From Clostridia bacterium (GTDB lineage: Bacteria > Bacillota > Clostridia > CAKSNL01 > HGM11501): DNA of 64,000 nucleotides. Each line of letters starts with the position of its first letter. Position 1 is the first letter of the stretch. Location of the stretch: positions 7,896 through 71,895 of the forward strand of contig CAAFWO010000040.1 in the NCBI GenBank assembly GCA_900766735.1, given 5' to 3'. The notes below the pieces were generated by a model. The model was not told where the DNA came from, ran no database searches, and saw nothing but the letters and a program-made list of their open reading frames with translations. Below are positions 49,831 to 63,988 of this stretch, piece after piece. Made by a program: the position numbers and the translations under genes.

Positions 49831-52305
49831 TTACTCCTTTATCTTTGTTACTTTATATCCCGCTGCCTCAACGGCAGTTTTCAATGCTTCCTTATCGGTC
49901 TTTTCGTCACACGAGACCTCCGCTTTGCCGGACTTTGCGCTGACAAAAGCCTCCGTAACGCCCGGAACGCTCAAAAGCGCCTCCCTCACCCTGTTTTCGC
50001 AGTGAGAGCACGTCATATTTTTAACTGTCAAAACAGTCTTTTTGTCGCTGTTTTTATCCGGATATACCTTAAAGAAATTAAGCCTTAACGCGTTCGACAC
50101 GACCGAAACGCTCGAAAGACTCATCGCCGCCGCGCCGAACATCGGATTTAATGTCAGTCCCAGCGCCGAAAAACAGCCTGCCGCAAGCGGAATACCGATG
50201 ACATTATATATAAACGCCCAGAAAAGATTCTCGTGAATGTTTCTGATCGTTGCACGAGAAAGCCTTATCGCCGTCGGAACGTCCGTCAGCCGGCTTTTCA
50301 TCAGAACGACATCTGCCGCGTCGATCGCGACATCGGTTCCCGCGCCGATCGCGATGCCGACATCCGCGCTCGTTAAAGGCGGTGCATCGTTTATGCCGTC
50401 GCCGACCATTGCGACTTTGCCTTCTTTTGCAAGTTTTTCGACGGCTTCCTTTTTGCCATCCGGTTTCACGCCGGCGATGACCTCGTCGACCCCGACTTTT
50501 TCGGCGATCGCGCGTGCTGTGTGTTCGTTGTCGCCCGTCAGCATCACGACGCGGATACCCATCTCGTGAAGCTCTGAGATCGCCTCCCTGCTCTCGGGCT
50601 TGACCGAGTCCGCAACCGCGATAACTCCCAAAAGCTTATTTTCTTTTGCAAAGAAGAGCGGCGTTTTCCCGTGGCGCGAAAATTCCTCCGCCTTTTTCTC
50701 ATCCTCCGGCGAAATTTTGGCCTCGTTTTTTATAAATTCAAGATTTCCACCGGAAACCTTTTCGCCGCCGATAATTCCGACAAGCCCGTTACCCGGAAGA
50801 GCCTTAAAATCCGACACTTCTTTTTCGGAAACATTTTTCTCTTCGCCGAGCCTTTTAACAGCCCCCGCGAGCGGATGCTCGCTCTTTTTCTCGAGCGAGA
50901 AAGCAAGGCTCAAAAGCTCATTTTCCGAAACGCCGTTCGATGTGAAGACATCGGTCACCTCGGGCAAGCCCATCGTTATTGTGCCTGTTTTATCGAGCGC
51001 GGCGATTTTTATTTTGCCGGCATTTTCAAGAACTTCGGCCGTTTTATATAAAATTCCGTTCTTTGCGCCGACACCTGAACCGACCATTATCGCGACCGGA
51101 GTCGCAAGTCCGAGCGCACAGGGACAGCTTATCACGAGTACCGAGATCGCACGGGCAAGCGCGAACGGAAATGTCTGCCCGATCATCAGCCATACTATCA
51201 ATGTGACGACTGAAATTGTAATGACCGCCGGGACAAACACGCCGGACACCCTGTCCGCAATTTTCGCGATCGGCGCTTTTGAGGACGCGGCATCGCTCAC
51301 CATCTTGATTATTTTCGAAAGCGCCGTGTCCTCGCCGACCTTTTTTGCCTCGCATGTTAAAAATCCTGACATATTCACAGTTCCGGCCGAGACCTCGTCT
51401 CCTGCCTTTTTATCCGCTGGAATGCTCTCGCCGGTGAGGGCAGATTCGTTGACCGCGCCTGAGCCTTCAGTCACCGTTCCGTCGACAGGAATGTTTTCTC
51501 CCGGACGGACAACGAATATATCGCCGATCTTCACATCGCCGACAAGAACTTCCGCTTCCTTGCCGTCGCGGATCACTGTCGCCTTATCCGGTGCAAGCTT
51601 CATCAGGCTTTTAAGCGCGTCCGTCGTCTTGCCCTTTGAGCGCGCTTCAAGCATCTTACCCAGCGTTATGAGCGTTAATATCATCGCGGCAGACTCAAAA
51701 TAGAACTCGTCCATATAGCGCATGACAGCTTCGTGGTCGCCCGATACCTGTGCGCCGGTCATCGCAAAGAGCGCATAGACGCTCCAGATGTATGACGCGC
51801 CGGAGCCCAGCGCAACGAGCGAATCCATATTCGGCGACCGATTTATGAGCGCCTTAAATCCGCTTATAAAAAACTTCTGGTTTATCACCATAATGACTGA
51901 CGCGAGCAGAAGCTGTATAAGCCCCATTGCAACATGATTATCGGAAAGCCATGACGGGACAGGACAGCCCCACATCATGTGCCCCATCGAAAAATACATA
52001 AGTACCAAAAGGAAAATAACAGAGGCGACCAGCCGTTTTTTTAGAACCGGTGTTTCATTATCCGAAGGCTTTTCCTTTTTTTCTTTACTGTTTTCTTCGC
52101 CCTTAACGGATGCGCCGTATCCGGCATCTTTGACGGCTTTTATTATTTCTTCATCCGTCGCGCTTCCCTCCACTGCCATACTGTTGGTGAGAAGGTTGAC
52201 ATTGCATTTTTCAACGTTTTCAAGCTTCGAAACAGCTTTTTCAACTCTCGATGAGCAAGATGCACAGCTCATTCCCGTTACATTAAACTGACGCATAAAA
52301 ATCAC
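49831..52305 (-). CDS. copA: copper-translocating P1B-type ATPase with N-terminal and C-terminal HMA domains
   Basis: 824 aa; N-terminal GMSCASC and C-terminal NMTCSHC metal-binding domains, TGES actuator motif, CPC (SCPCALGLATP), DKTGT, GDGINDAP. Confidence 0.9.
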   Translation of the reverse strand: MIFMRQFNVTGMSCASCSSRVEKAVSKLENVEKCNVNLLTNSMAVEGSATDEEIIKAVKDAGYGASVKGEENSKEKKEKPSDNETPVLKKRLVASVIFLLVLMYFSMGHMMWGCPVPSWLSDNHVAMGLIQLLLASVIMVINQKFFISGFKALINRSPNMDSLVALGSGASYIWSVYALFAMTGAQVSGDHEAVMRYMDEFYFESAAMILTLITLGKMLEARSKGKTTDALKSLMKLAPDKATVIRDGKEAEVLVGDVKIGDIFVVRPGENIPVDGTVTEGSGAVNESALTGESIPADKKAGDEVSAGTVNMSGFLTCEAKKVGEDTALSKIIKMVSDAASSKAPIAKIADRVSGVFVPAVITISVVTLIVWLMIGQTFPFALARAISVLVISCPCALGLATPVAIMVGSGVGAKNGILYKTAEVLENAGKIKIAALDKTGTITMGLPEVTDVFTSNGVSENELLSLAFSLEKKSEHPLAGAVKRLGEEKNVSEKEVSDFKALPGNGLVGIIGGEKVSGGNLEFIKNEAKISPEDEKKAEEFSRHGKTPLFFAKENKLLGVIAVADSVKPESREAISELHEMGIRVVMLTGDNEHTARAIAEKVGVDEVIAGVKPDGKKEAVEKLAKEGKVAMVGDGINDAPPLTSADVGIAIGAGTDVAIDAADVVLMKSRLTDVPTAIRLSRATIRNIHENLFWAFIYNVIGIPLAAGCFSALGLTLNPMFGAAAMSLSSVSVVSNALRLNFFKVYPDKNSDKKTVLTVKNMTCSHCENRVREALLSVPGVTEAFVSAKSGKAEVSCDEKTDKEALKTAVEAAGYKVTKIKE

Positions 52306-52339
52306 TCCGTATATAGTCTTGCCTTAAGATAAATATTTA

Positions 52340-52648
52340 TTACTTCATTAATTTCTGAATCGTCGAAACAAGCTCGTCGATCACTTCATCGTCGCCGTTT
52401 CTTATGTCCCTTACGACGCAACCCTCGATGTGGCTTTTGAGCATTTCCCTGTTAAAGGCGTTCATCGCGGCCACGACCGCAGATGACTGGATCAGAATGT
52501 CGTTACAGTATGCGTCGGACTCGATCATCGACTGTATTCCGCGGATCTGCCCTTCGATTCTTTTAAGCCTGTTAAGCATTGATTTTTTCTGCTCGTCGCT
52601 ACGCATCGTGTGTTTTTCGCTGCAATGACAGCATTTTTCTCGCTCCAT
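52340..52648 (-). CDS. csoR: CsoR-family copper-sensing transcriptional repressor
   Basis: 102 aa; conserved Cys/His ligands (…YCNDILIQ…, …EGCVV…), RIEGQIRGI helix. Confidence 0.85.
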   Translation of the reverse strand: MEREKCCHCSEKHTMRSDEQKKSMLNRLKRIEGQIRGIQSMIESDAYCNDILIQSSAVVAAMNAFNREMLKSHIEGCVVRDIRNGDDEVIDELVSTIQKLMK

Positions 52649-52653
52649 AAAAA

Positions 52654-52689
52654 TACCCCCTAAGGGTATTATATACCTATAGGGGGTAT
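52654..52689. promoter_or_regulatory. two tandem, mutually inverted 17-bp GC-core palindromes (ATACCCCCTAAGGGTAT / ATACCTATAGGGGGTAT): candidate CsoR operators
   Basis: located 6-41 nt upstream of csoR start codon on its promoter side. Confidence 0.55.
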
Positions 52690-52706
52690 TTTGTCAAGCA
52701 TTAATT

Positions 52707-55289
52707 TTATACCCGGCAATAAAGCTCGTCGTCCTTAACGTCGACGGTTATTGTACTTCCGGCGTCAAAATCGCCTTTCAAAATTGCGCGTGCAATAAGG
52801 GTCTCCATACTGCTCTGCAAGTAACGACGGAGCGGTCTTGCACCGTAAAGCGGATCGTAGCCTCTGTCGATGATGAGTTCTTTTGCTTTATCCGTAACAG
52901 TAAGCTTAAGCGACTTGTCTGCAAGACGGCTTCTCAAACCTTCGATCATAATGTCGATGATTCCGGTGAGGTTCTCCTTCGTGAGCGGACGGAACATAAC
53001 CGTCTCGTCGAGTCTGTTTAAGAACTCCGGACGGAAGAACTTTTTAAGCTCGCTCATAACGGCGTTCTTTGCCTCCTCGGTGATATTGCCGTCTGCGTCG
53101 ATTCCGTCAGTCAGATACTGGCTTCCGAGGTTCGACGTTAAGATTATGATAGTGTTCTTAAAGTCGACAGTTCTTCCCTGCGAATCGGTGATACGTCCGT
53201 CGTCCAATATCTGAAGAAGAATGTTAAATACGTCGGGGTGCGCCTTCTCGACCTCATCGAAAAGAACAACGCTGTAGGGTTTTCTTCTTACCGCTTCTGT
53301 AAGCTGGCCGCCCTCGTCATATCCGACATATCCGGGAGGTGCGCCGATAAGGCGCGATACGGAGTATTTCTCCATATACTCGGTCATATCGATACGAACG
53401 ATGTTTTTCTCATCGTCAAACAGGCATTCCGCAAGGCTCTTCGCAAGCTCTGTCTTTCCGACACCGGTAGGTCCTAAGAAGAGGAACGAGCCGATCGGCC
53501 TGTTGGGGTCGGAAATTCCGGCACGCGACCTTAAAATTGCCTCCGTTACCTTCTTAACGGCCTCATCCTGGCCGACAACGCGCTTGTGAATGTATTCGTC
53601 CAGATGAAGGATCTTTTCGCGCTCGCCCTCCATCAGCTTGGAAACGGGAATCCCCGTCCACTTTGCGACGATTCCCGAAATATCCTCGTCAGTTACGGTG
53701 TCGTGAATCATCGTGCCCTGCTTCTTTGTTTCGGTTGCTTTTTCGGCCTCGTGAAGCTTTGCTTCGAGTGCCGGAAGGTCTGAATACTTAAGCTTTGCGG
53801 CCTTTTCATATTCATAGTGAAGCTGTGCGTTCTCAATGTCTGCGTGCATCTTCTCGATTTCGGACTTTAACTTCTTAACAGCATCAACGCTCGACTTTTC
53901 TTCCTCCCAGCGCGACTTCATCTCGTTGAACTTGTCTTTAAGTTCATAAAGCTCCTTGCGAAGCTTTTCGAGCCTGTCGCGGCTTAAGGTGTCGTCCTCC
54001 TTTTTGAGTGCCATTTCCTCGATCTCAAGCTGCATGATCTTTCTTCTGACATCGTCCATCTCCGAAGGCATCGAGTCGATCTCGGTTCTGATAAGTGCGC
54101 ACGCCTCATCGACTAAGTCGATCGCCTTATCGGGCAGGAATCTGTCCGTGATATATCTGTTAGAAAGCGTTGCCGCCGCGACAAGCGCACTGTCATGGAT
54201 TCTGACACCGTGGAACACCTCATAGCGCTCCTTAAGACCTCTTAAGATCGAGATAGTGTCCTCGACAGTCGGCTCATCAACCTGAACAGGCTGGAAACGC
54301 CTTTCAAGTGCCGGATCTTTTTCAATATATTTTCTGTACTCGTCAAGCGTTGTCGCACCGATGCAGTGAAGCTCACCGCGCGCAAGCATGGGCTTTAAGA
54401 GATTACCTGCGTCCATACTTCCCTCGGTCTTTCCTGCGCCGACGATCGTGTGAAGCTCATCAATGAAAAGAAGTATCTTTCCCTCCGAGCGTTTGATCTC
54501 GGTAAGTACGGCCTTTAACCTTTCCTCAAATTCGCCCCTGTATTTTGCGCCGGCGATAAGTGCGCCCATATCGAGCGAGAATATTGTCTTATCCTTAAGG
54601 CTCTCGGGAACATCGCCTCTTACGATACGCTGGGCAAGCCCCTCTGCGATCGCCGTTTTGCCGACGCCGGGTTCGCCGATAAGAACGGGATTGTTCTTCG
54701 TCTTACGTGAAAGAATTCTGATTACATTTCTTATCTCGGAATCACGGCCGATGACCGGGTCAAGCTCATTGTTTTTTGCTCTTTCAACAAGGTCTGTTCC
54801 GTATTTTTTAAGCGCATCATAGGTGCTTTCGGGGTTATCTCCCGTAACCGGTGCGGTCTTCACCTTCGAAAGCTCTGAGATGAATTTCTGCTTTGTGACA
54901 GAATGGTTATCGAATATCTTTTTGATCGCCGGTGTCGCCGCGGCAAATATTCCGACCATCAGATGCTCGACGGAAACATATTCGTCCCCCATCGACTTTG
55001 CCGCCTGCTCCGCGGCCTTTATTACCCTGTCGGTCTCGGGTGAAAGATATGCTCTTCCCTCCATTGTGCCGACCTTGGGAAGGTTGTCGATCGCGGTGTC
55101 AAGTTCAGTAAGTACCGCGTCGGTGTCCGCTCCCATCTTCTTTAAAAGCGACCCGATAAGTCCGCCGTCCTGATCAATAAGGGCGTATAAAAGATGCTCG
55201 GGAGCGATATAGTTATTTCTGTTTTCCTCAGCCATGGACTGAGCGGTGTTAAGCGCTTCCGCGCTTTTCTGTGTATAGTTAGTGTTCAT
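52707..55289 (-). CDS. clpB: ATP-dependent chaperone ClpB
   Basis: 860 aa; two AAA+ modules ([16 protein letters not shown]), long middle coiled-coil, Clp N-domain. Confidence 0.95.
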
Positions 55290-55313
55290 AGCGTTTCTTC
55301 CTTTCCCTCGGCG

Positions 55314-55961
55314 CTAAAAATAAAGTGCCGCATTCTCAAGATATTTTGCGTATGACGCTTCGACGTCTCTTTCTGTGAGCCTCTCGGAAAGATAGCCCTT
55401 TAAGAGCTCATCGAAAAGCTCAATATAGTCGGAGAGCGCTTTTGCAAGCGTTTCCGCCGAAAAGTCCTTATCCGGTGCGAGGATCGTTCTCTCGAATTTT
55501 CCGTCATAGAGTGCATAGTCGTTTTCAAGGCCTGTCAGCGGTCTTAAATATGCGTCTTCAATGCGCTTCCACAGGCGGAAAAAGTTTGTAATTCTTCTCA
55601 CGAGATATTCGGACTGTGTTCTGAATACCACCGAAAGAGTTCCGATCTTTCTGCCGGACTCGGCGTCAAGCTCGACCTCATATTTGACCGTCGGGCGGTA
55701 TTTATATTCAAGCGAGCTTTTAAGCGACATCGAAAGGCTGTTCGGTGAAAAGAACGGAACGAGCTCTCTCGATGATGCCGTGAGTCTTTCGATCGCGGAA
55801 AGCACCTCGCCTATCCGCTGTTCCGGCGTCACATAATTCACATATTCGGCAAGTATTCTGTTTATGAGGCTTGAACGGTTAGTGCCCATCTTGTGCGCCA
55901 TAATGTCAACCTCGCGCACAACATCGTCATTAAGCACAAGACTGTATAATGTTTTTTTCAT
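55314..55961 (-). CDS. hypothetical protein with N-terminal ribbon-helix-helix (CopG/Arc-like) DNA-binding motif and uncharacterised ~170-aa C-terminal domain
   Basis: start MKKTLYSL at 55961 preceded by AGGAGGTG RBS; RHH signature TLYSLVLNDDVVREVDIMAHKMGTNRSSLINRILAEYV. Confidence 0.55.
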   Translation of the reverse strand: MKKTLYSLVLNDDVVREVDIMAHKMGTNRSSLINRILAEYVNYVTPEQRIGEVLSAIERLTASSRELVPFFSPNSLSMSLKSSLEYKYRPTVKYEVELDAESGRKIGTLSVVFRTQSEYLVRRITNFFRLWKRIEDAYLRPLTGLENDYALYDGKFERTILAPDKDFSAETLAKALSDYIELFDELLKGYLSERLTERDVEASYAKYLENAALYF

Positions 55962-56091
55962 AATGCACCTCCTGGTTTCATCGGACATATTATCTCCGAT
56001 TTACAAGTTCATATTACACCCAAAACAAACTTTTGTCAATAGTTTTATATAATTATTAATGCAAATTATATAAATAGTTTTCATTTTGTTA

Positions 56092-56124
56092 AAAAAAGAG
56101 CTGAGCATTGCTCAACTCTTTTTG
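56092..56124. terminator. bidirectional hairpin terminator overlapping the stop of the GLUG-protein gene
   Basis: AGAGCTGAGC-ATT-GCTCAACTCT flanked by A7/T5. Confidence 0.6.
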
Positions 56125-59100
56125 CGTTTATGTTTTTTAACTAAAGTTACTGTCACGAATACTGCCGCCGCCAGAATGAGGACGATCACAGCCGCCGTGA
56201 TGCATTTTGACAAAAGCGCCGATTCATATCTCACCGCGATCGTGACCTCGGGACTGTCAACAGTGAACTTGACATATTTTCCCCTGTTTGAGGATTTGAT
56301 CTTCTCCCACTTGCCGCCGTTTTTATAAAAGACGGTCGCCTTGTCTTTGTTCTCGTTAATTATCCTGAACTTATATTCTCCGTCCTCGGGAACGGAAGCG
56401 CCCATAAGCTTAATGCTGTAGACCTCTGTCTCGCCGACTGCGCCGCCGGGACCTTCCTCATTTAACTCGCTCGCTCGTAACAGGGTATCTGAGGTGAACT
56501 CGCCTTCTGCAAGGGCAATTGCAAGCTTTCCGGTGTTGTTTCTCTCCTCGCTCTCCAAAAGCGTTACCCAGTTATTATATTCAGCTTCGATCGAGAGATC
56601 GCTTGAAACCGTTCCCTCGCCGATGTCCTCCCACTCTCCGAAGCTTCCCTTCTTTTCGGGAACCTCCGGCATCTTGATCTTGCCGTACGGCTCGCCGTAT
56701 TTTATAAGCTCCTCAGCGACCTTTTCGCCGTCTGCATAGAACCTTGCATAGAAGCTGATAAATTCGGCCGGTACATTCATTTTTGAAAGCTCATCGTAAG
56801 TCGCCGGCTCAGCCTTTCCTTTATAGCTGATTCCGTCAAGTGCGCCGAGACCCTTATCCAGGTACTTGCAGTCCCTCACTATTTTCACGTTTTTCTTATC
56901 TCCGGCAATGCTTCCTGTGTATTCGTCACCGGTAACGTCCGCGATCGCATAGCATTCGCTGACAGAATCCGTGTAGCCGGCCACACCGCCGACGTATGAC
57001 GCGCCTTCGGCGTTGCACTTAGCATAATTTTTCTTGAGCACGGACTCTGAGTATCCGGCGATTCCGCCGACATATGAGCCGGACTCGCTTAACACGTCGG
57101 CATATCCCTCGCAGGAATATATAACGCCGAGGCTTAAGTTTCCGGCGATTCCGCCCATACAATTCTTTTTGCCGTCGATCTTTCCGCGGTTAACGCATTC
57201 AGATACAATGGCTTTTGTCTTATAGACAAAGTTTAAGTTTGACGGGCGCTTGAAATCGTCCTCCGGGTCGGAGGTGTACTCGATCGCGACAGCGCCGGCG
57301 ATTCCGCCTCCGTTTCTGTCCGCATTTATCTTGCCGGAATTTTCACACCTTGTGACTTTTCCGGATACGGCGCTCGATATTTCGGACTCCGAAACGTCGA
57401 CGAAGTAGTCGTCAATATCGAAATTGAGATATTTCTCTTCGTTTTCGGTGATCGAGTCGATTATAAGGTTCATTATGAGGTCGAACTGATCCGAAAGGTT
57501 CTGAACATCGTTTCTGATCGTCTTTCTGTCCTCTTTGAATTTATCCTTCATTTTTGAAAGCTCGTCGGAGATTCCGGTCAGCGTGTCAAAAAGTCCGTCT
57601 CCCTTTTCCTGAAATTCCGTGCCAAGCTTTTTAAGCTTCATCGGCCCTGCGTCCGCAATGTCTTTCGCAATGTCGGAAAGCTTCGAAAACGCGTCCGAAA
57701 GGTCTGAAAATGCATAGCTCATCGCATCGGAAGCTTTTTTAAGCTCTGCGTTTGCCGCGTTGAGCTGCTCGGTCATATCGTCGGCATAATCGCCGAGCTT
57801 TTTATGAAGCCCTGAAAGCGAGTCTGCCAATGAAGCGCACGCCTCCGACATGGCCTTAAACCCTGCCATCAGGCAGTCAAGTGAATCGTCAAGATAATCG
57901 GCCGCCTTTTCAAAATCGTCAAAATCGACTTCAGTATTGCTGATTATAGTATTTAAGCTTTCGCTCATGGCGTTTATCGCGTCCGCAACCGGCGAAAGAG
58001 CTTTGAGCATCCGGCCGAGTGCGTCGGTAATGCCCTCGATGTCCTTAATATCGCCCGATGAAATTATATCGCTTAACGTTTTTATTGCCTTATAGATCTG
58101 ATTGTGCGCCGAGAGAAGCTTTTCGATCGCGCTTTTAAGCTCGCTTGCCGCCTTTCTCACATCGCTCTTATTTTTTACCGTCACGGCGGAAGACAGGCGG
58201 CGCATTGCCTTCTGGGCATAGCTTGTCGCGCTCTTCAATTCCTTTGAACCGTCGGCAAGAGTCTTGAGTGCGTCAGTCATCAGGTCGATCTCCATATCGA
58301 TGTCCGGCGTGTAAAGATTGATTTTAGAAAGTGCCGCATTTAAGCTGTCGGAAGCCGAAACGAGCGAATCAGCCGAGGAGGAAACAAGATCTAAAACCTC
58401 AACGCTGTCGTCGATCGCCGTTGACAATATGGCAGAATAAGTGTTAAGCTCATCGATATTTGTATCGATAAAGTCATCCGTCATATCGAGCATATCCTTG
58501 GCATATCCGCGTGCGATGCCTGAATAATCCGAAATATTGTCAAGGTAAGCCTCGATATTGTCCGCCGCAGAATCCGAATCGTTTATAAGAGTGTCCGTCA
58601 TTTTGTTAAAGGTCTCAAGCTCGCGTTTAACCTTTTGAAGCGTGCTCTCCGAAACGTCCAAAAGCACATAAGGCTCTGCCTGACCGACGATTCCGCCGAC
58701 ATCCTTTCGACCCATGATCTCGCCGCTGTTCTTACAGCCCGTTAAAAGCCCGGACTGCCTTCCGGCGATACCGCCGACGTTATAGCCGACATGCTGATAG
58801 CCGACCGTGCCTTTGTTTTCACAGCCGGATATAACGCCCTTTGAAAGACCGACGATTCCGCCGATATCATAAAAGCTCTTAAGGAGCCCTTCTTCGGTTT
58901 TATCGTCTTTTTCTTTATTGATTTTTACGTTTTCAACGACGCTTTCAATATCCGTGTCAAGCACCGATGTGCTCTTTTTATCAGCCTCAACAGTGTTGAT
59001 GTTGCCGAGATTTTTGCTCGAAGCAATATATCCGTCGTTATATCCGGCGATACCGCCGACGGAATTCTCGCCGACAATGACGCCGTTAAACGTCGCGTCG

Positions 59101-59597
59101 ACCACTTTTGCGCTGTCCGTGCATTTTCCGGCGATTCCGCCGATCGCGGACGCGCCTTTCACCGTGCCGGAGTATGTCGATGAAATAATCTCGCCCGAGT
59201 TCACGCCGGCGATCCCGCCGATATAGCAGGCCGTGCCGCCCGGCGCGATATTTCCGGTTATATTAAGCTCCTTAACGACCGCGCCCTTTTCAAGATACCT
59301 GAAAAAGCCGAGGTTTGAACCGTTTTTCGAAATATTGACTCCGCTTATCGTGTGCCCGTTTCCCAAAAATGTGCCGGAAAATGTCGGTATCGGGGTAAAT
59401 TCATCACCCGAAAAGTCAATATCCGCGGTCAGGTTCACCGTCTTTCCGATTGACCAGGAATCAAGCGTGCATTTTTCCGCAAGCCTTAAAAATGCTGATT
59501 TGTCCGAAACCGTGATAATGTCTCCCTCGGCATATAAAGGAGTAGCCGAAAGCACAAATATTATCAAAAGTAATAAAGATATTATTTTTTTATACAT
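56112..59597 (-). CDS. large membrane-anchored surface protein: signal peptide, N-terminal GLUG-motif repeats, ~450-aa alpha-helical/coiled-coil region, second GLUG-repeat block, C-terminal TM anchor + basic tail
   Basis: 1161 aa. Repeated GGIAG-type units: IGGIAGVNSGEI, IGGIAGKCTD, VGGIAGYNDGYI, IGGIVGLSKGVI, VGGIAGRQSG, VGGIVGQ; later GGGIAGAV, MGGIAGNL, VGGIAGYSES, VGGVAGYTDS. Central low-complexity Ser/Asp/Leu/Lys-rich helical region. C-terminus ITAAVIVLILAAAVFVTVTLVKKHKRKKS. Confidence 0.7.
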   Translation of the reverse strand: MYKKIISLLLLIIFVLSATPLYAEGDIITVSDKSAFLRLAEKCTLDSWSIGKTVNLTADIDFSGDEFTPIPTFSGTFLGNGHTISGVNISKNGSNLGFFRYLEKGAVVKELNITGNIAPGGTACYIGGIAGVNSGEIISSTYSGTVKGASAIGGIAGKCTDSAKVVDATFNGVIVGENSVGGIAGYNDGYIASSKNLGNINTVEADKKSTSVLDTDIESVVENVKINKEKDDKTEEGLLKSFYDIGGIVGLSKGVISGCENKGTVGYQHVGYNVGGIAGRQSGLLTGCKNSGEIMGRKDVGGIVGQAEPYVLLDVSESTLQKVKRELETFNKMTDTLINDSDSAADNIEAYLDNISDYSGIARGYAKDMLDMTDDFIDTNIDELNTYSAILSTAIDDSVEVLDLVSSSADSLVSASDSLNAALSKINLYTPDIDMEIDLMTDALKTLADGSKELKSATSYAQKAMRRLSSAVTVKNKSDVRKAASELKSAIEKLLSAHNQIYKAIKTLSDIISSGDIKDIEGITDALGRMLKALSPVADAINAMSESLNTIISNTEVDFDDFEKAADYLDDSLDCLMAGFKAMSEACASLADSLSGLHKKLGDYADDMTEQLNAANAELKKASDAMSYAFSDLSDAFSKLSDIAKDIADAGPMKLKKLGTEFQEKGDGLFDTLTGISDELSKMKDKFKEDRKTIRNDVQNLSDQFDLIMNLIIDSITENEEKYLNFDIDDYFVDVSESEISSAVSGKVTRCENSGKINADRNGGGIAGAVAIEYTSDPEDDFKRPSNLNFVYKTKAIVSECVNRGKIDGKKNCMGGIAGNLSLGVIYSCEGYADVLSESGSYVGGIAGYSESVLKKNYAKCNAEGASYVGGVAGYTDSVSECYAIADVTGDEYTGSIAGDKKNVKIVRDCKYLDKGLGALDGISYKGKAEPATYDELSKMNVPAEFISFYARFYADGEKVAEELIKYGEPYGKIKMPEVPEKKGSFGEWEDIGEGTVSSDLSIEAEYNNWVTLLESEERNNTGKLAIALAEGEFTSDTLLRASELNEEGPGGAVGETEVYSIKLMGASVPEDGEYKFRIINENKDKATVFYKNGGKWEKIKSSNRGKYVKFTVDSPEVTIAVRYESALLSKCITAAVIVLILAAAVFVTVTLVKKHKRKKS

Positions 59598-59613
59598 TCC
59601 GGTTCACTCCTTT

Positions 59614-62094
59614 CTATTCGTCGTCTTCGTCATCATAATAGTCATCGGAATCGACGTCATAATGTCCGTCCTTGTCACCGGCGCTTCCGCTGAGTAGATT
59701 TGCGTCAACCTCACCCGAAATGATTCCGTAAAAGCTTCCCTCAACTCTGCCGTTGACATAGCCCGAAAGCTTGCCGTTTATCACGTGGTTACCGGAAAGC
59801 GAAAGCTTCTTGCCGTGAAGGCCGACCTTAAATGCCGTCTTATCAATGATCTTATCGCCAAGCAGGAGAAGCTGGGGTAAAATTCCCATAACAAGCACCA
59901 TTGATATTATCGTTCCGCGCCCTAAGCATGTTCCGATCGATGCAATCGCGCAGTCTGTCGACATAAGGCCGATGATGATACCGGCTGATGCTAAAATAGT
60001 TCCAGATGTAAATATTGTCGGGAACGCAAGGCTTAAGGTCTTTATTATCGCGTCCTTTTTGTCCATCGTCTGTCTTAACTCGGTATAACGGTTCGTGATA
60101 ACTATCGCATAGTCGATATTCGCACCCATCTGAATCGAGCTTACGACCAAATAGCTTAAGAAGAACATATGATTTCCCTCGATTATCGGGAACGAGAAGT
60201 TTATCCATACGCTACCTAAAATAACGATGATAAGTATTATCGGCAGTCCGGCCGACTGGAAAGTGAAAAGAAGAATTATCACGACAAACAGCGCTGAAAG
60301 AATGCTGATAAGGAGATTATCTTGCCCGAATGTCGATGATAAATCGTAGTCGTTGGTTGAGTTACCGCACAAAATAACGTCGTCTCCGTAATACTTTGTC
60401 GCCTTATTTCTGATCGTTTCAAGAAATGCAAACGTTTCCTCCGTCTCCTCAGGAAGATTCAGTTCGAGCACAATTCTTGAATAATTCTTGCCCTTAAGCT
60501 GTTTTTTACCGTCTTCAAGGTCGGAATTGATTTCGTCAAGGTCGGAGCGCAGATCATCATCCAATGTGATCGTACCGTTATCGACATCATCGTACAAAAA
60601 TTCAAACATATCTATTAGCGGAACCTCGTAATTGTCGATACCGCCGATAATCTTTCCGTAATTTTCATCGTCAACGGCATATGCCGCATAGAGAAAACGC
60701 ACAAGCTCCACATCCATATCGGTAAGCTCTGAAAATGTTCTTGGACTGAGCTTGTCGGCCAGCATATAGCCGTCCATCGCCTCGGTGCTCGAAAGCCCGG
60801 TCACAGTGTCGATCTCCGGAAGCTTCGACAGCTCCTCGGAGAGCGCCTTTTCGTCGTCATATCGCCCGGTCGGAACCAAAATGGCGACAACGTTGGTCGG
60901 CGCGAAAGTCTCCGATATCATCTGCTCTGCGATCTGCGAGTCGTTCTTTCTCACTGTCGATAAAAGTGTGTAGCTGTATGCATAGGGACACATATTGGAA
61001 AGAATGAATGCAATCACCAAAAGTCCGGCAAAAATGCAGGGTGCGATCACCTTAAGCTTGATGACGATCCTTCCCCACGCGTCGATATTCGGCACAAAGC
61101 TTCTGTGGTGTGTCTTATCGATCTTATCACTGAAGGTATATATAAGTCCCGGCATAAACGTGAACACGCAAAGAATGCTTATGATTATCGCTTTGATAAG
61201 GATAATACCCATATCAAAACCGATCTTGAAGTGCATAAACATCATCGCAGCGAGTCCGGAAAGCGTCGTCAGGCAACTGCCGGAGATCTCCGGAACGGCC
61301 TTGGAAAGCGCCGCGACAACAGCTTCATAAGGCTCTTTTGTCTCACGCTCTTCTGTGTAGCGATGGCAAAGAATGATCGCATAGTCAATAGCGAGCGCCA
61401 GTTGGAGTATGACGGCAACGGAATTTGAAACAAACGAGATCGTTCCGAACATAAAGTTTGTTCCTTTATTAATGAGCGCCGCCATACCGAAGGTCGCCAG
61501 CATGACCGGGACCTCCATATATGTTTTCGATGTGAAAAGCAAAACCGCAATGATAATAACACATGTTATTACCATAACGATGTTTATTTCGTTGTTGATT
61601 CGGTTCGCCTTTGTATCTCCGAGCTCCGCCGAAATGTAATAATCATATCCCCCGAGATAATCCTCGGCATTCTGAAGCGCTTCGGATGATATTTCGTCGT
61701 CCTCGTCCCCCTCGAACGTGAGAGTGAAAAGCGCCGACGACTCGTTATAGTGCTTATCCGTGTCGTCAAACGCAACGGACTTTACACCGTTAAGATCCGC
61801 GAGTTTATCCGAAAGCTTTTCAGCGCTCTCGTATGATATATTGTCGACCATAATTTTTGCGGTAGCATATGTAGTGAACTCCTCTTCCATAATGGAAAGT
61901 CCGCGCCTGGTCTCCGTCTCCTCATCAAGATAGTCGGTAAGCTTGTTGTCAACCTTGACCCAGCCGGACGATATTATACAAAACACAGCTATTATGGCAT
62001 ATATAAAATAGAACGCTTTTCTTTTATCAACAATAAACGCCGCAACCTTTTCAAAGCCTTTCGGATTATCCTTGGTCTTCTCCTCCATAAGCAC
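59614..62094 (-). CDS. MMPL/RND-superfamily membrane transporter (two 6-TM bundles each followed by a large extracytoplasmic domain) with acidic C-terminal tail
   Basis: 826 aa; two hydrophobic blocks with SSD-like arrangement; C-terminal …DVDSDDYYDDEDDE. Confidence 0.75.
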   Translation of the reverse strand: MLMEEKTKDNPKGFEKVAAFIVDKRKAFYFIYAIIAVFCIISSGWVKVDNKLTDYLDEETETRRGLSIMEEEFTTYATAKIMVDNISYESAEKLSDKLADLNGVKSVAFDDTDKHYNESSALFTLTFEGDEDDEISSEALQNAEDYLGGYDYYISAELGDTKANRINNEINIVMVITCVIIIAVLLFTSKTYMEVPVMLATFGMAALINKGTNFMFGTISFVSNSVAVILQLALAIDYAIILCHRYTEERETKEPYEAVVAALSKAVPEISGSCLTTLSGLAAMMFMHFKIGFDMGIILIKAIIISILCVFTFMPGLIYTFSDKIDKTHHRSFVPNIDAWGRIVIKLKVIAPCIFAGLLVIAFILSNMCPYAYSYTLLSTVRKNDSQIAEQMISETFAPTNVVAILVPTGRYDDEKALSEELSKLPEIDTVTGLSSTEAMDGYMLADKLSPRTFSELTDMDVELVRFLYAAYAVDDENYGKIIGGIDNYEVPLIDMFEFLYDDVDNGTITLDDDLRSDLDEINSDLEDGKKQLKGKNYSRIVLELNLPEETEETFAFLETIRNKATKYYGDDVILCGNSTNDYDLSSTFGQDNLLISILSALFVVIILLFTFQSAGLPIILIIVILGSVWINFSFPIIEGNHMFFLSYLVVSSIQMGANIDYAIVITNRYTELRQTMDKKDAIIKTLSLAFPTIFTSGTILASAGIIIGLMSTDCAIASIGTCLGRGTIISMVLVMGILPQLLLLGDKIIDKTAFKVGLHGKKLSLSGNHVINGKLSGYVNGRVEGSFYGIISGEVDANLLSGSAGDKDGHYDVDSDDYYDDEDDE

Positions 62095-62248
62095 TCTCCT
62101 TTTACAAAATAATAATTGACAAATGTTAATTAAGCAATTATAATAATATTATAAACATTAGGGTTTATTAATGCAATATACAATTGCGAAAAAAATGTAT
62201 TTTAATGGACAAAAATGCTGTGTGCTGTCCATTTGGGAGGTATTAAAT

Positions 62249-62824
62249 ATGGTAAATTCCGATGATCGCAGAGTTCGCAAAACGCGCCGCCTGATGACGG
62301 ACGCACTGGCAAAGCTGCTTGCCGAAAAACCTTTGAGCAACATCACCGTCCGCGAGATCGCCGATATGGCGGACATAAACCGCGGAACATTCTATCTTCA
62401 TTATAAAGATGTTTTCGATATGGTCGATAAGATCCAGGCCGATCTCTTTGAAAAATTCAATGCGATCATAACAAATTATATGCCGACTGCGGATTCAAAA
62501 CGACTCTTTCCTCTTCTTGAAAAGCTGTTTGAGCTTTTAGCCGAAAACGCAAACCTTGCGCGCGCCCTTGTGAGCAAGCACGGCGACGCGGCATTTATCA
62601 ATAAGCTCAAAAACGTTGTCCGCGAAAAGTGCCTTGCCGACATGCCGAATCCGCAGCCTGATAAAGCGGCGGAATTCGACTACTTTTTCAGTTATGTTTC
62701 ATCAGGCTGTACCGGGCTTTGCCATGCGTGGCTTGAGGGCGATATGGCAGAGTCTCCGGCCGAGATGGCAGCGCTTGCCGAGCGGTTCATAAAGGGCAGC
62801 TTCGACGCTGCGGTCCGTCATTAA
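62249..62824 (+). CDS. TetR/AcrR-family transcriptional regulator
   Basis: 191 aa from ATG 62249 (RBS GGGAGG); N-terminal HTH RKTRRLMTDALAKLLAEKPLSNITVREIADMADINRGTFYLHY; divergent from MMPL gene. Confidence 0.85.
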   Translation: MVNSDDRRVRKTRRLMTDALAKLLAEKPLSNITVREIADMADINRGTFYLHYKDVFDMVDKIQADLFEKFNAIITNYMPTADSKRLFPLLEKLFELLAENANLARALVSKHGDAAFINKLKNVVREKCLADMPNPQPDKAAEFDYFFSYVSSGCTGLCHAWLEGDMAESPAEMAALAERFIKGSFDAAVRH

Positions 62825-62981: not shown

Positions 62982-63212
62982 TTAGATAATTATATTGCCA
63001 TTTTCCCTACTCCTTTCTGCCTGTGGCTTATAATTTACTCTCTCGAAAAAGTACTGCTTACTTACTCTGCCGGCAATGGAGCGAAATCCTTGCCGTCGCA
63101 GCTCGGAATTCATTTCCTTGATAACCTTGTAAGCATATGACTTTGATACTCCGAGTATCTGCTGCACTTCTTCAGCTCTCAAAAACAAATTCCCCATGTT
63201 TTCACTCCTCAC
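62982..63212 (-). CDS. small helix-turn-helix protein of the excisionase (Xis-Tn916-like/MerR-type) DNA-binding family
   Basis: ~71-76 aa; …LRAEEVQQILGVSKSYAYKVIKEMNSEL… ; start may be MGNLF at 63197. Confidence 0.55.
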   Translation of the reverse strand: MRSENMGNLFLRAEEVQQILGVSKSYAYKVIKEMNSELRRQGFRSIAGRVSKQYFFERVNYKPQAERSRENGNIII

Positions 63213-63529
63213 TATTGTTTTTTATCATTTAGCGTTAATATAATATAAATAAATGCTTCTATGCCTGCATTGACTCAACGCATTTTGATAATGTATAACC
63301 ATTATATCCTACTTTTAAGATAATGTCAAGTGCTTTTCGAAAATTTATTATCTTTTTTATTTCTTATAGTTGACTAACTCAAACTAATATGTTATAACAG
63401 ATGTATGGTCTATACATCTATTTCAAGGTTCTGTCAAATAATAAAGGTAGAGATTTTTAAAAAAAATACTACCTGATACTTGACAGGTTCTTATAATAAT
63501 AGATAGAACAATACGATTGGAGATATATT

Positions 63530-63988
63530 ATGGCTATCGGAGAACGAATAAGATTTTTAAGAAATCTGCACGGTGCCACACAGAAATGGCTTGGCATCAA
63601 ACTCGGCTTTAGCGAAAAAACAGCCGAAACCCGTGTAGGTCAGTATGAAATAGGTGTCAGAACACCAAAAGATGATATGATAAAGGATATTGCAAAAATA
63701 TTCGATGTATCACCGCAGGCAATCAAACTGCCCGATATTGATAATTACAATGCACTGCTGCACACCCTGTTTGCAATAGAGGATATATACGGATTGACAA
63801 TAAATATGCTTGATGACGAGTTCTGTCTTGCACTTGACAGGGAAAATCCGTCTTATTTTCCTATGTACGATATGCTTCGTGCGTGGAATAAGGTTGCCCG
63901 TAAATATAGAAACGGCGAAATAACAAAAGAGGAATACGATAATTGGAGATATAATTATCCGGAAAATAATTCTAAAAACACAAATTAA
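63530..63988 (+). CDS. XRE-family HTH transcriptional regulator
   Basis: 152 aa; N-terminal HTH (IGERIRFLRNLHGATQKWLGIKLGFSEKTAETRVGQYEIGVRTPKDDMIKDIAKIFDVSPQAI). Confidence 0.7.
   Translation: MAIGERIRFLRNLHGATQKWLGIKLGFSEKTAETRVGQYEIGVRTPKDDMIKDIAKIFDVSPQAIKLPDIDNYNALLHTLFAIEDIYGLTINMLDDEFCLALDRENPSYFPMYDMLRAWNKVARKYRNGEITKEEYDNWRYNYPENNSKNTN

Follow-up and report, generated by a model that had tools for sequence, protein, structure and literature searches.

The closest described relatives of the system considered here are the mycobacterial siderophore and drug exporters MmpL4/MmpS4 and MmpL5/MmpS5. MmpL5 forms trimers held by an extracellular coiled-coil stalk of ~130 Å, which is required for assembly and efflux, and it also needs MmpS5, a single-pass protein encoded in its operon (PMC12122801); the stalk of MmpL4 is likewise essential, its role in transport still being described as open (PMC12803245). 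FarE/FarR of Staphylococcus aureus (PMC12671165, PMC8844917) is described as an inducible RND/MMPL fatty-acid efflux system with a divergent TetR-family regulator, which confers resistance to membrane-active lipids. We compare these systems with a locus in a 64,000-nucleotide stretch of Clostridia bacterium DNA (contig CAAFWO010000040.1, hereafter the window), in which a gene for an MMPL/RND transporter (hereafter the MMPL) is followed on the same strand by a gene for a 1161-residue extracellular protein (hereafter the partner).

We propose that the MMPL and the partner are two subunits of one envelope machine, namely an exporter of hydrophobic compounds that is driven by the proton-motive force and has an obligate, extended extracellular subunit; we judge this reading about as likely as not. 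The two proteins are assigned to one complex because they are encoded in one operon, occur together obligatorily and have repeatedly been fused.

MmpL4/5 (PDB 9syj, 8zkp) are the best match of the MMPL both in structure and among PDB sequences, and the likeness extends to an Asp-Tyr proton relay (putative here), an operon-encoded accessory protein with a single transmembrane (TM) pass, repressor control and a long extracellular helical element, the functional essentiality of which is a feature of MmpL4/5. Identity to the window MMPL is only 13-16%, and there are further differences. The MmpL4/5 stalk is an insertion in the second periplasmic domain of the pump, where the window MMPL has only a helical insertion of ~85 residues; the large helical domain lies instead on the partner (a 400-residue bundle) or, in a sister clade described below, at the C-terminus of the pump. 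Whereas MmpS is an N-terminally anchored β-sandwich of ~140 residues, the partner, with its 1161 residues, is anchored C-terminally, contains two β-helices and has no MmpS homology. The host is a monoderm Clostridium which, unlike mycobacteria, has no mycomembrane, and the regulator is of the TetR type rather than MmpR5, as for MmpL5. FarE resembles the locus as a Firmicute RND/MMPL-type pump with a divergent TetR regulator, a likeness of gene arrangement and literature only, and it is not known to have a partner gene.

Conservation and fusion of the gene pair

Synteny was assessed in the best 80 of 589 candidate loci from species-representative genomes, with MMPL and TetR genes counted by tblastn and searches based on hidden Markov models. 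An MMPL homologue lies directly upstream of the partner gene, on the same strand, in 79 of the 80 loci; the 80th contains only 17 nucleotides (nt) of upstream DNA. The loci derive from Oscillospiraceae, Oscillibacter, Ruminococcus, Lachnospiraceae, Anaerotignum, Tissierellales, Syntrophomonas and other Clostridia, nearly all being metagenome-assembled genomes (MAGs) from gut or rumen. Across them the MMPL is 46-67% identical and the partner only 31-43%; the linkage has therefore outlived deep divergence. In the reverse direction, all three MMPL homologues picked by MMPL similarity alone carry a gene for a partner of 1165-1223 residues, the start of which overlaps the MMPL stop by 11-23 nt. More than 5,990 homologues of the partner were found, and 7,780 representatives at 50% identity have E ≤ 1e-30; the top 150 representatives all score >870 bits, most of them being full-length at about 1,100-1,200 residues. 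Since homologues number in the thousands, the two open reading frames (ORFs) are not chance ORFs.

The pair also occurs as a single polypeptide. In three rabbit-gut MAGs (L014, L016 and L017) the MMPL and partner form one ORF of up to 2003 residues, and a query with the fused protein returned 29 clusters (90% identity; 1686-2167 residues) found in MAGs of Clostridium, Lachnospiraceae and Lachnoclostridium, with no annotation beyond 'MMPL family transporter'; each of the 29 holds the MMPL and the entire partner (residues ~23-1125). An origin of these forms in assembly or frameshift artefacts is unlikely, because the 29 clusters come from independent samples. A neighbour-joining tree of the MMPL moiety places fused forms in at least three clades, one of them nested within the split clade that contains the window, so fusion or fission has occurred more than once. 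At the junction the last MMPL helix is followed by a hydrophobic segment matching the partner signal peptide, and then by the mature partner. The fused form has a consistent topology, in which the cytoplasmic C-terminus of the MMPL leads into TM13 (formerly the signal peptide), the ectodomain lies outside, and the last TM helix brings the Lys-rich tail back into the cytoplasm. Without cleavage of TM13, both ends of the ectodomain would be held at the membrane, and the helical bundle, being central in the chain, would form the distal tip. The first-pass annotation of the window had held that the MMPL and the giant protein belong together; synteny, the reverse check and the fused forms bear this out, and absence of the pairing from other genomes, which it had named as counter-evidence, was not seen.

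A sister clade of ~50 clusters (P0301-P0350) comprises MMPLs of 1050-1370 residues in which TM12 is followed by an extra TM helix and a Q/A-rich coiled-coil ectodomain of ~330 residues; in the two sequences read, P0303 (L082:6001-9693) and P0340, two to three further TM helices follow the coiled coil. These proteins show no similarity to the partner and have no GLUG partner; the P0303 locus includes a divergent TetR_C_8 regulator. Taken with the partner, the sister clade indicates that clostridial MMPLs have repeatedly gained an extracellular helical appendage, in cis or in trans; the need for such an appendage therefore recurs among these pumps.

When all neighbouring ORFs were clustered, no third conserved gene emerged beyond TetR. 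Of the 64 loci with enough DNA, 31 have a TetR gene of the window's family less than 2 kb upstream (divergent in 24, co-directional in 7), and TetR genes also stand beside the fused forms and the helical-fusion forms. The link to TetR drawn from the divergent gene in the window is real, but does not extend to the remaining loci.

Several loci carry additional features. A small, soluble, β-rich protein of ~106-112 residues with no Pfam match (motif YSPLG[VI]KKG...TIIGDI...LYG...TNKGCMAVTG) is encoded between TetR and MMPL, co-directionally with the latter, in 7 of the 80 loci (L018, L048, L057, L059, L065, L067 and L078) and at L083:4632-4952 and L085:4676-5014, where, in L085, its gene overlaps the MMPL start; it is absent from the window and may be an optional cytoplasmic accessory of the system. 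The MMPL-partner pair was also found on short contigs assigned by binning to Anaerovibrio sp. (L078), a diderm Negativicute, and to a MAG labelled Bacteroides sp. (L062). These occurrences may reflect mis-binning or horizontal transfer, and they bear on whether the system is restricted to monoderms. In a Lachnospiraceae MAG, a gene of the choloylglycine (bile-salt) hydrolase family (PF02275 CBAH; L081:11354-12361) is convergent with a fused MMPL-GLUG gene and overlaps its 3' end; this adjacency could be due to chance, and it fits a bile-related substrate.

Architecture and family of the partner

An AlphaFold2 (AF2) model of the partner, built on 120 homologues, has a mean predicted local distance difference test score (pLDDT) of 78 and a predicted template-modelling score (pTM) of 0.67. 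From the N-terminus, a signal peptide precedes a first β-helix, a helical bundle, a second β-helix, membrane-proximal β domains and a single C-terminal TM anchor (Table 1). Ten GG[IV][AV]G motifs mark the two β-helices, six at residues 127-301 and four at 764-870. The first β-helix is interrupted in the model by a disordered acidic loop (residues 205-241), and the second has a conserved acidic loop, IEYxxDPEDD (772-780), with low pLDDT over residues 774-794. The helical bundle (residues 317-716) is rich in D (13.5%), S (11.8%), L (11.2%), A (11.2%) and K (8.8%), carries a net charge of -32 and is only 32% conserved in sequence; the ectodomain as a whole is strongly acidic, with a net charge of -61. 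The TM segment spans residues ~1127-1153 and is followed by KKHKRKKS. This architecture agrees with the first-pass annotation in its signal peptide, two GGIAG-type blocks and C-terminal TM segment with a Lys-rich tail, whilst the helical region measures ~400 residues and not the ~450 given there.

The most conserved segment of the partner is residues 244-312, at 70% (GYxHxGYNVGGIAGRQ...GRKDVGGIVGQAEPY), and its closest homologues are mostly of 1140-1190 residues, with many polar residues invariant. The partner behaves like a machine part more than an adhesin, because its length is conserved, many polar residues are invariant and one long segment is so strongly retained. Some family members reach 1300-1900 residues (P0459, P0496, P0400, P0408 and others); three Flg_new_2 (divergent InlB B-repeat) domains are inserted in P0459 and P0496, and P0440, P0468 and P0486 have a C-terminal extension of ~450 residues past the family match, which gave no significant Pfam match in P0468 and P0486 and a weak, sub-threshold DUF4364 match in P0440.

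Comparisons with known families returned little beyond the GLUG rungs. The partner scores 21.3 bits against Pfam GLUG (PF07581; gathering score 20.5) with no single stretch significant, a marginal match, and its fused relatives score 41-44 bits. In a profile search of the PDB the sole sequence relative of the first β-helix was the GLUG N-terminal region of Streptococcus pneumoniae IgA1 protease (E 4e-4; PDB 6xja, 6xjb, 7jgj), likewise assigned to Pfam GLUG, with which it has GxxxVGG[IL]aG rungs in common. The likeness spans about 65 residues and is confined to these rungs: the partner has neither an HExxH motif nor an M26 Pfam match, and it differs from the protease in its anchor and its helical insertion. 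The whole partner matched no curated family (Pfam, NCBIfam) and no PDB structure, a whole-chain Foldseek search of the PDB giving nothing significant (best E 0.015), and no enzyme family was matched in Pfam or NCBIfam. Nor did a Pfam or NCBIfam search reveal an MmpS or HlyD-type adaptor, the partner being anchored at its C-terminus rather than its N-terminus. Existing annotation of the family is limited to 'hypothetical', 'GLUG motif-containing' or 'MMPL family transporter', and our literature search found no paper that mentions both GLUG and MMPL and no published study of the partner or the pairing. The statement in the first-pass annotation that no characterised system could be matched thus holds for curated families, PDB entries and papers.

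All matches to the helical region reflect coiled-coil composition and score far under the cut-offs of the families concerned (SMC, ZorA, JetC, tape-measure proteins, apolipoprotein, Mce tail, spike HR1). Foldseek resemblances to the ClyA, AhlB, SmhB and Hbl toxins and to designed bundles are weak (E ≥ 0.015) and reflect generic long helical bundles only, and PDB sequences, when searched with a profile of the entire partner, yielded methyl-accepting chemotaxis proteins, spike HR1, myosin and apolipoprotein A-IV through coiled-coil composition only. An origin in a defence system or phage tail was discarded, since PADLOC and PHROGs yielded only coiled-coil noise (JetC, ZorA, tape-measure proteins) for this region; the PADLOC models gave no match for the MMPL or TetR.

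The transporter

The MMPL matches Pfam PF03176 in two stretches, covering both halves (E 8.8e-39; 133.8 bits against a cut-off of 20.5). Its AF2 model (pLDDT 75.6) has twelve TM helices and two α/β porter domains, after TM1 and TM7, the second of which contains the helical insertion (residues 449-531). The top Foldseek matches of this model are MmpL4/MmpL5 (E 5e-26 to 1e-22; TM-score 0.6-0.7), followed by MmpL3 and HpnN (E 1e-20 to 1e-17), NCR1 (1e-17) and AcrB-type pumps. By sequence it is distant from all of these, the match to MmpL4/MmpL5 (E ~1e-8) covering the TM region only. It falls far below every NCBIfam subfamily cut-off, scoring 43.6 against 1400 for MmpL3, 78.8 against 751.85 for HpnN (TIGR03480), 26 against 1400 for BstA, 118 against 351.9 for HAE3 (TIGR00921) and 119.1 against 874.7 for actII (TIGR00833). 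The RND lipid exporters of the MmpL3, HpnN and HAE3 families have the same fold of twelve TM helices and two porter domains, with these weak NCBIfam matches; none of them has a GLUG/helical partner.

Two Asp-Tyr pairs, one in each of the pseudo-symmetric halves and assigned to TM4 and TM10 by their position in the model, constitute a putative proton relay by analogy with the pairs of MmpL3/MmpL5 (PMC12122801). All 199 MMPL homologues contain at least two copies of the motif DY[AS][IV], and since the pairs are found in both halves and in every homologue, the MMPL looks functional as a pump.

The cytoplasmic C-terminal tail is less constant. In the AF2 model its G-x-V-x-G repeat segment, GYVNGRVEGSFYGIISG, forms a low-confidence β-hairpin and the end, DVDSDDYYDDEDDE, is disordered. 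The acidic tail that had been remarked on in the window protein is indeed there but is lineage-specific, being found in 16 of 120 homologues, many of which have only ~770 residues; neither it nor the G-x-V-x-G tail is conserved among MMPL homologues, and both were rejected as family signatures. The bactofilin-like repeat recurs in a distant fused relative, P0278 (GYVNGVIEGDFNGIIEG), and is absent from the homologues of ~770 residues.

Alternative roles

The alternative that survives best, although we consider it improbable, is that the MMPL is not primarily a pump but an actuator driven by the proton-motive force, which like SecDF performs conformational work, here on a tethered ectodomain, for instance in wall remodelling, surface display or release, or sensing. 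SecDF, within the RND superfamily, provides the precedent for a proton-powered motor. An RND motor covalently joined to a very large ectodomain, which in the fused forms is anchored at either end, would suit such a role, as would the strict conservation of the proton relay and the location of the most conserved partner segment at the junction of β-helix and helical bundle, where it could act as a hinge. Against this, the fold is best matched by exporters of lipids and siderophores (MmpL4/5, MmpL3, HpnN) and not by SecDF, control of the TetR type is typical of efflux, and the partner shows no recognisable catalytic motif (no HExxH, no enzyme family match).

A reversed direction of transport is a little less probable again. 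Here a wall-spanning partner would capture sterols or lipids of host or dietary origin, and the RND protein would receive them for import or insertion, much as NPC1/NCR1 or Mce systems do. The relatives of the MMPL do include the sterol handlers NCR1 (Foldseek E 1e-17) and BstA (weak NCBIfam match), the family is abundant in gut Oscillospiraceae, and the helical domain gave weak Mce4_CUP1 and Mce C-terminal matches. The exporters MmpL4/5, MmpL3 and HpnN all match better than NCR1, and the Mce and apolipoprotein matches are compositional and far under cut-off (46 against 140.5 bits; 17-18 against 33-90). In particular, the TIGR00996 match (3e-12; 46.3 against 140.5 bits) covers the helical tail only, which led us to reject an Mce identity, Mce4_CUP1 reaches 18.2 against 32.6 bits, and neither Pfam nor NCBIfam detected an MlaD/MCE domain.

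We give similarly little weight to the idea that the partner is an independent surface protein, such as an adhesin, enzyme or phage receptor, which shares an operon with an efflux pump and forms no complex with it. Surface adhesins and proteases commonly contain GLUG β-helices and InlB-type repeats, the sequence of the TM anchor is not conserved, and phages use as receptors the long helical ectodomains of Pip, YueB and similar membrane proteins of Gram-positive bacteria. Independence is difficult to reconcile with a synteny that holds almost without exception across deeply diverged loci, with stop and start codons that overlap and with recurrent fusion in several clades, and conservation of length and of many polar residues is unlike fast-evolving adhesins. 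A motif and Pfam scan of the partner found no LPxTG and no SLH, S-layer or other cell-wall-binding domain. YhgE/Pip and EsaA/YueB-type Firmicute membrane proteins have an elongated helical ectodomain of wall-spanning length. They differ from the partner in topology and domain content: they lack β-helices, and the partner, with a signal peptide and one C-terminal TM helix, is unlike the multi-pass, ABC-2-like YhgE/Pip. Among Pfam and NCBIfam matches at E ≤ 0.01 there was no YhgE/Pip family for the partner, and the Pip-like function entertained in the first-pass annotation is accordingly not supported; the same domain search matched no apolipoprotein family above noise, only coiled-coil composition.

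The other function suggested there, in which the giant protein would be cargo that the MMPL exports, or builds into a fibrous surface structure, accords with the tight genetic linkage but is very hard to sustain, because the partner has its own Sec signal peptide and stop-transfer anchor, its size is fixed at about 1160 residues rather than that of polymerising repeats, the 29 fused clusters carry the 'cargo' within the same membrane protein and thus make the two subunits rather than pump and cargo, and we know of no RND/MMPL transporter that translocates proteins, these transporters moving small hydrophobic molecules.

Proposed function

In the two-subunit exporter that we favour, the MMPL would use the proton-motive force to draw a small hydrophobic or amphiphilic compound out of the cytoplasmic membrane; fatty acids, an envelope lipid and bile-type or other membrane-active compounds are candidate substrates. 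The partner would be secreted by the Sec route, held beside the pump by its C-terminal helix, and would project its long acidic ectodomain of β-helices and helical bundle away from the membrane, taking in trans the part that the coiled-coil stalk and MmpS play in mycobacterial MmpL4/5. It could thereby organise the pump and supply a way out, or an acceptor, by which the substrate moves off the membrane and into or through the thick cell wall. In this genome the system is very probably under divergent TetR control.

Several considerations weigh against this reading. Contact between the unfused MMPL and partner, the direction of transport and the nature of the substrate are points that we infer. 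The length and shape of the ectodomain, any channel or groove in it and the geometry that would let the partner span the wall are presumed, and confidence for the helical bundle in the AF2 model is only moderate (pLDDT 55-87). The partner TM helix is only 19% conserved and may be a mere anchor. In the roughly half of loci with no nearby TetR gene, a constitutive role in envelope biogenesis is as likely as inducible efflux. Finally, monoderm RND pumps such as FarE work with no partner, and a conduit is not obviously needed.

Gene organisation and control region

The features of the locus are listed in Table 1; coordinates are positions in the whole window, and ORFs were taken from its sequence. 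Every feature that the first-pass annotation described is there, its terminator at 56092-56124 included. The MMPL and partner genes form a single operon, as the first-pass annotation had it, judging from the short gap with its ribosome-binding site, the single terminator and the divergent TetR promoter region. The transcription unit ends at 56092-56124, because the partner stop codon sits in the terminator hairpin and a new promoter-like site for the next gene (56092-56011; promoter scan) lies beyond it.

The MMPL ORF first placed at 59614-62094 is present, but its true start is almost certainly the ATG at 62088 rather than the GTG at 62094, since a ribosome-binding site (AAGGAGAG) lies 7 nt ahead of the ATG and the database protein P0121, which is 100% identical to the window MMPL, also has 824 residues. 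The true start of the regulator is probably the ATG at 62249, giving 191 residues, because GGAGG precedes it and homologous TetRs beside related MMPL genes have 188-196 residues. The regulator has the N-terminal helix-turn-helix (HTH) and TetR-type C-terminal domain of its family, and palindromes lie at the divergent promoter; these, and the inverted repeat in the tetR leader, are candidate TetR operators.

Table 1. Features of the MMPL-partner locus (window coordinates)
Feature	Position	Strand	Description
Partner gene	56112-59597	minus	1161-residue ORF; C-terminally anchored extracellular protein with GLUG-type β-helices and helical bundle
Sec-type signal peptide	59526-59597	minus	Partner residues 1-24, MYKKIISLLLLIIFVLSATPLYA/EG (...PLYA/EG); from hydropathy; no lipobox Cys
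β-helix 1	58662-59525	minus	Residues 25-312; six GGI[AV]G rungs; AF2 pLDDT >90
Helical bundle	57450-58649	minus	Residues 317-716; nine helices of 25-79 residues; pLDDT 55-87
β-helix 2	56808-57365	minus	Residues 745-930; four GG[IV]AG rungs
Membrane-proximal β domains	56223-56807	minus	Residues 931-1125; small InlB-B-repeat-like unit (so labelled from motif resemblance only), then β-sandwich; AF2 pLDDT 83-91
C-terminal TM anchor and Lys/Arg-rich cytoplasmic tail	56115-56222	minus	Residues 1126-1161; no LPXTG
MMPL/RND transporter gene	59614-62088	minus	824 residues; mechanical GTG ORF reaches 62094
Asp235-Tyr236, motif AIDYAI	61381-61386	minus	Putative TM4 proton-relay pair
Asp659-Tyr660, motif NIDYAI	60109-60114	minus	Putative TM10 proton-relay pair
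Cytoplasmic C-terminal tail of MMPL	59617-59835	minus	Residues 752-824; G-x-V-x-G repeat segment GYVNGRVEGSFYGIISG, then acidic end DVDSDDYYDDEDDE
Intercistronic spacer	59598-59613	minus	16 nt from MMPL stop to partner ATG; AGGAG ribosome-binding site for partner
Intrinsic terminator	56092-56124	minus	14-bp stem, dG -18 kcal/mol, then U7; overlaps partner stop codon
TetR-family regulator gene	62171-62824	plus	Pfam TetR_C_8 2.3e-19, TetR_N 6.7e-08
Divergent control region	62095-62248	both directions	Promoters and candidate operators (promoter scan, inverted-repeat search)
tetR promoter	62116-62144	plus	Perfect sigma-70 TTGACA-17-TATAAT
MMPL-operon promoter-like site	62171-62143	minus	Weaker than tetR promoter
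AT-rich palindromes	62122-62159		Candidate operators; overlap promoters
Inverted repeat AATGGACA/TGTCCATT	62204-62233		Candidate operator, 8+8, in tetR leader

Next to the TetR gene, over 62982-63988, the GC content falls from ~48% to 35-38%, and a prophage or integrative element probably has its edge here. The segment contains two genes, each with a strong promoter-like site close by: one on the minus strand (62982-63212) is small, HTH_17/AlpA-like and of excisionase type (phrog_989, E 1.3e-24), and the other, on the plus strand (63530-63988), encodes an XRE/cI-like repressor. The downstream neighbours (49831-55988, all on the minus strand) seem unrelated to the MMPL-partner pair. They encode a 224-residue protein with a weak ribbon-helix-helix N-terminus and its own promoter (55314-55988) and, judging from visual inspection of the translations, a probable ClpB-type chaperone (52707-55289), a small CsoR-like ORF (52340-52648) and an 824-residue heavy-metal P-type ATPase with CxxC metal-binding motifs (49831-52305).

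Implications

The locus encodes an RND/MMPL pump with a new kind of accessory subunit, and not a categorically new system. More tentatively, and with less confidence than we attach to the two-subunit exporter itself, it may represent a previously unrecognised class of bipartite RND machine in gut Clostridia, in which a subunit of ~1,160 residues, separate or fused, is a wall-spanning arm on an MmpL4/5-like pump and the monoderm counterpart of the mycobacterial stalk and MmpS. The arm might serve as conduit or acceptor for lipids or other hydrophobic molecules, or be moved by proton power, and the cis coiled coil of the sister clade would be a second solution.

Little is understood of the way in which Gram-positive RND/MMPL pumps deliver hydrophobic substrates past the membrane and across a thick wall. 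The family described here is large, with 589 candidate loci and thousands of protein clusters, and includes many gut commensals; its extracellular module, which occurs as a separate gene, as a C-terminal fusion or as a simpler coiled coil, offers a ready comparative system for the role of such a module. Should the substrate be a bile-type compound, a fatty acid or an envelope lipid, the system would also be relevant to the ways in which dominant gut Clostridia tolerate or handle host lipids.

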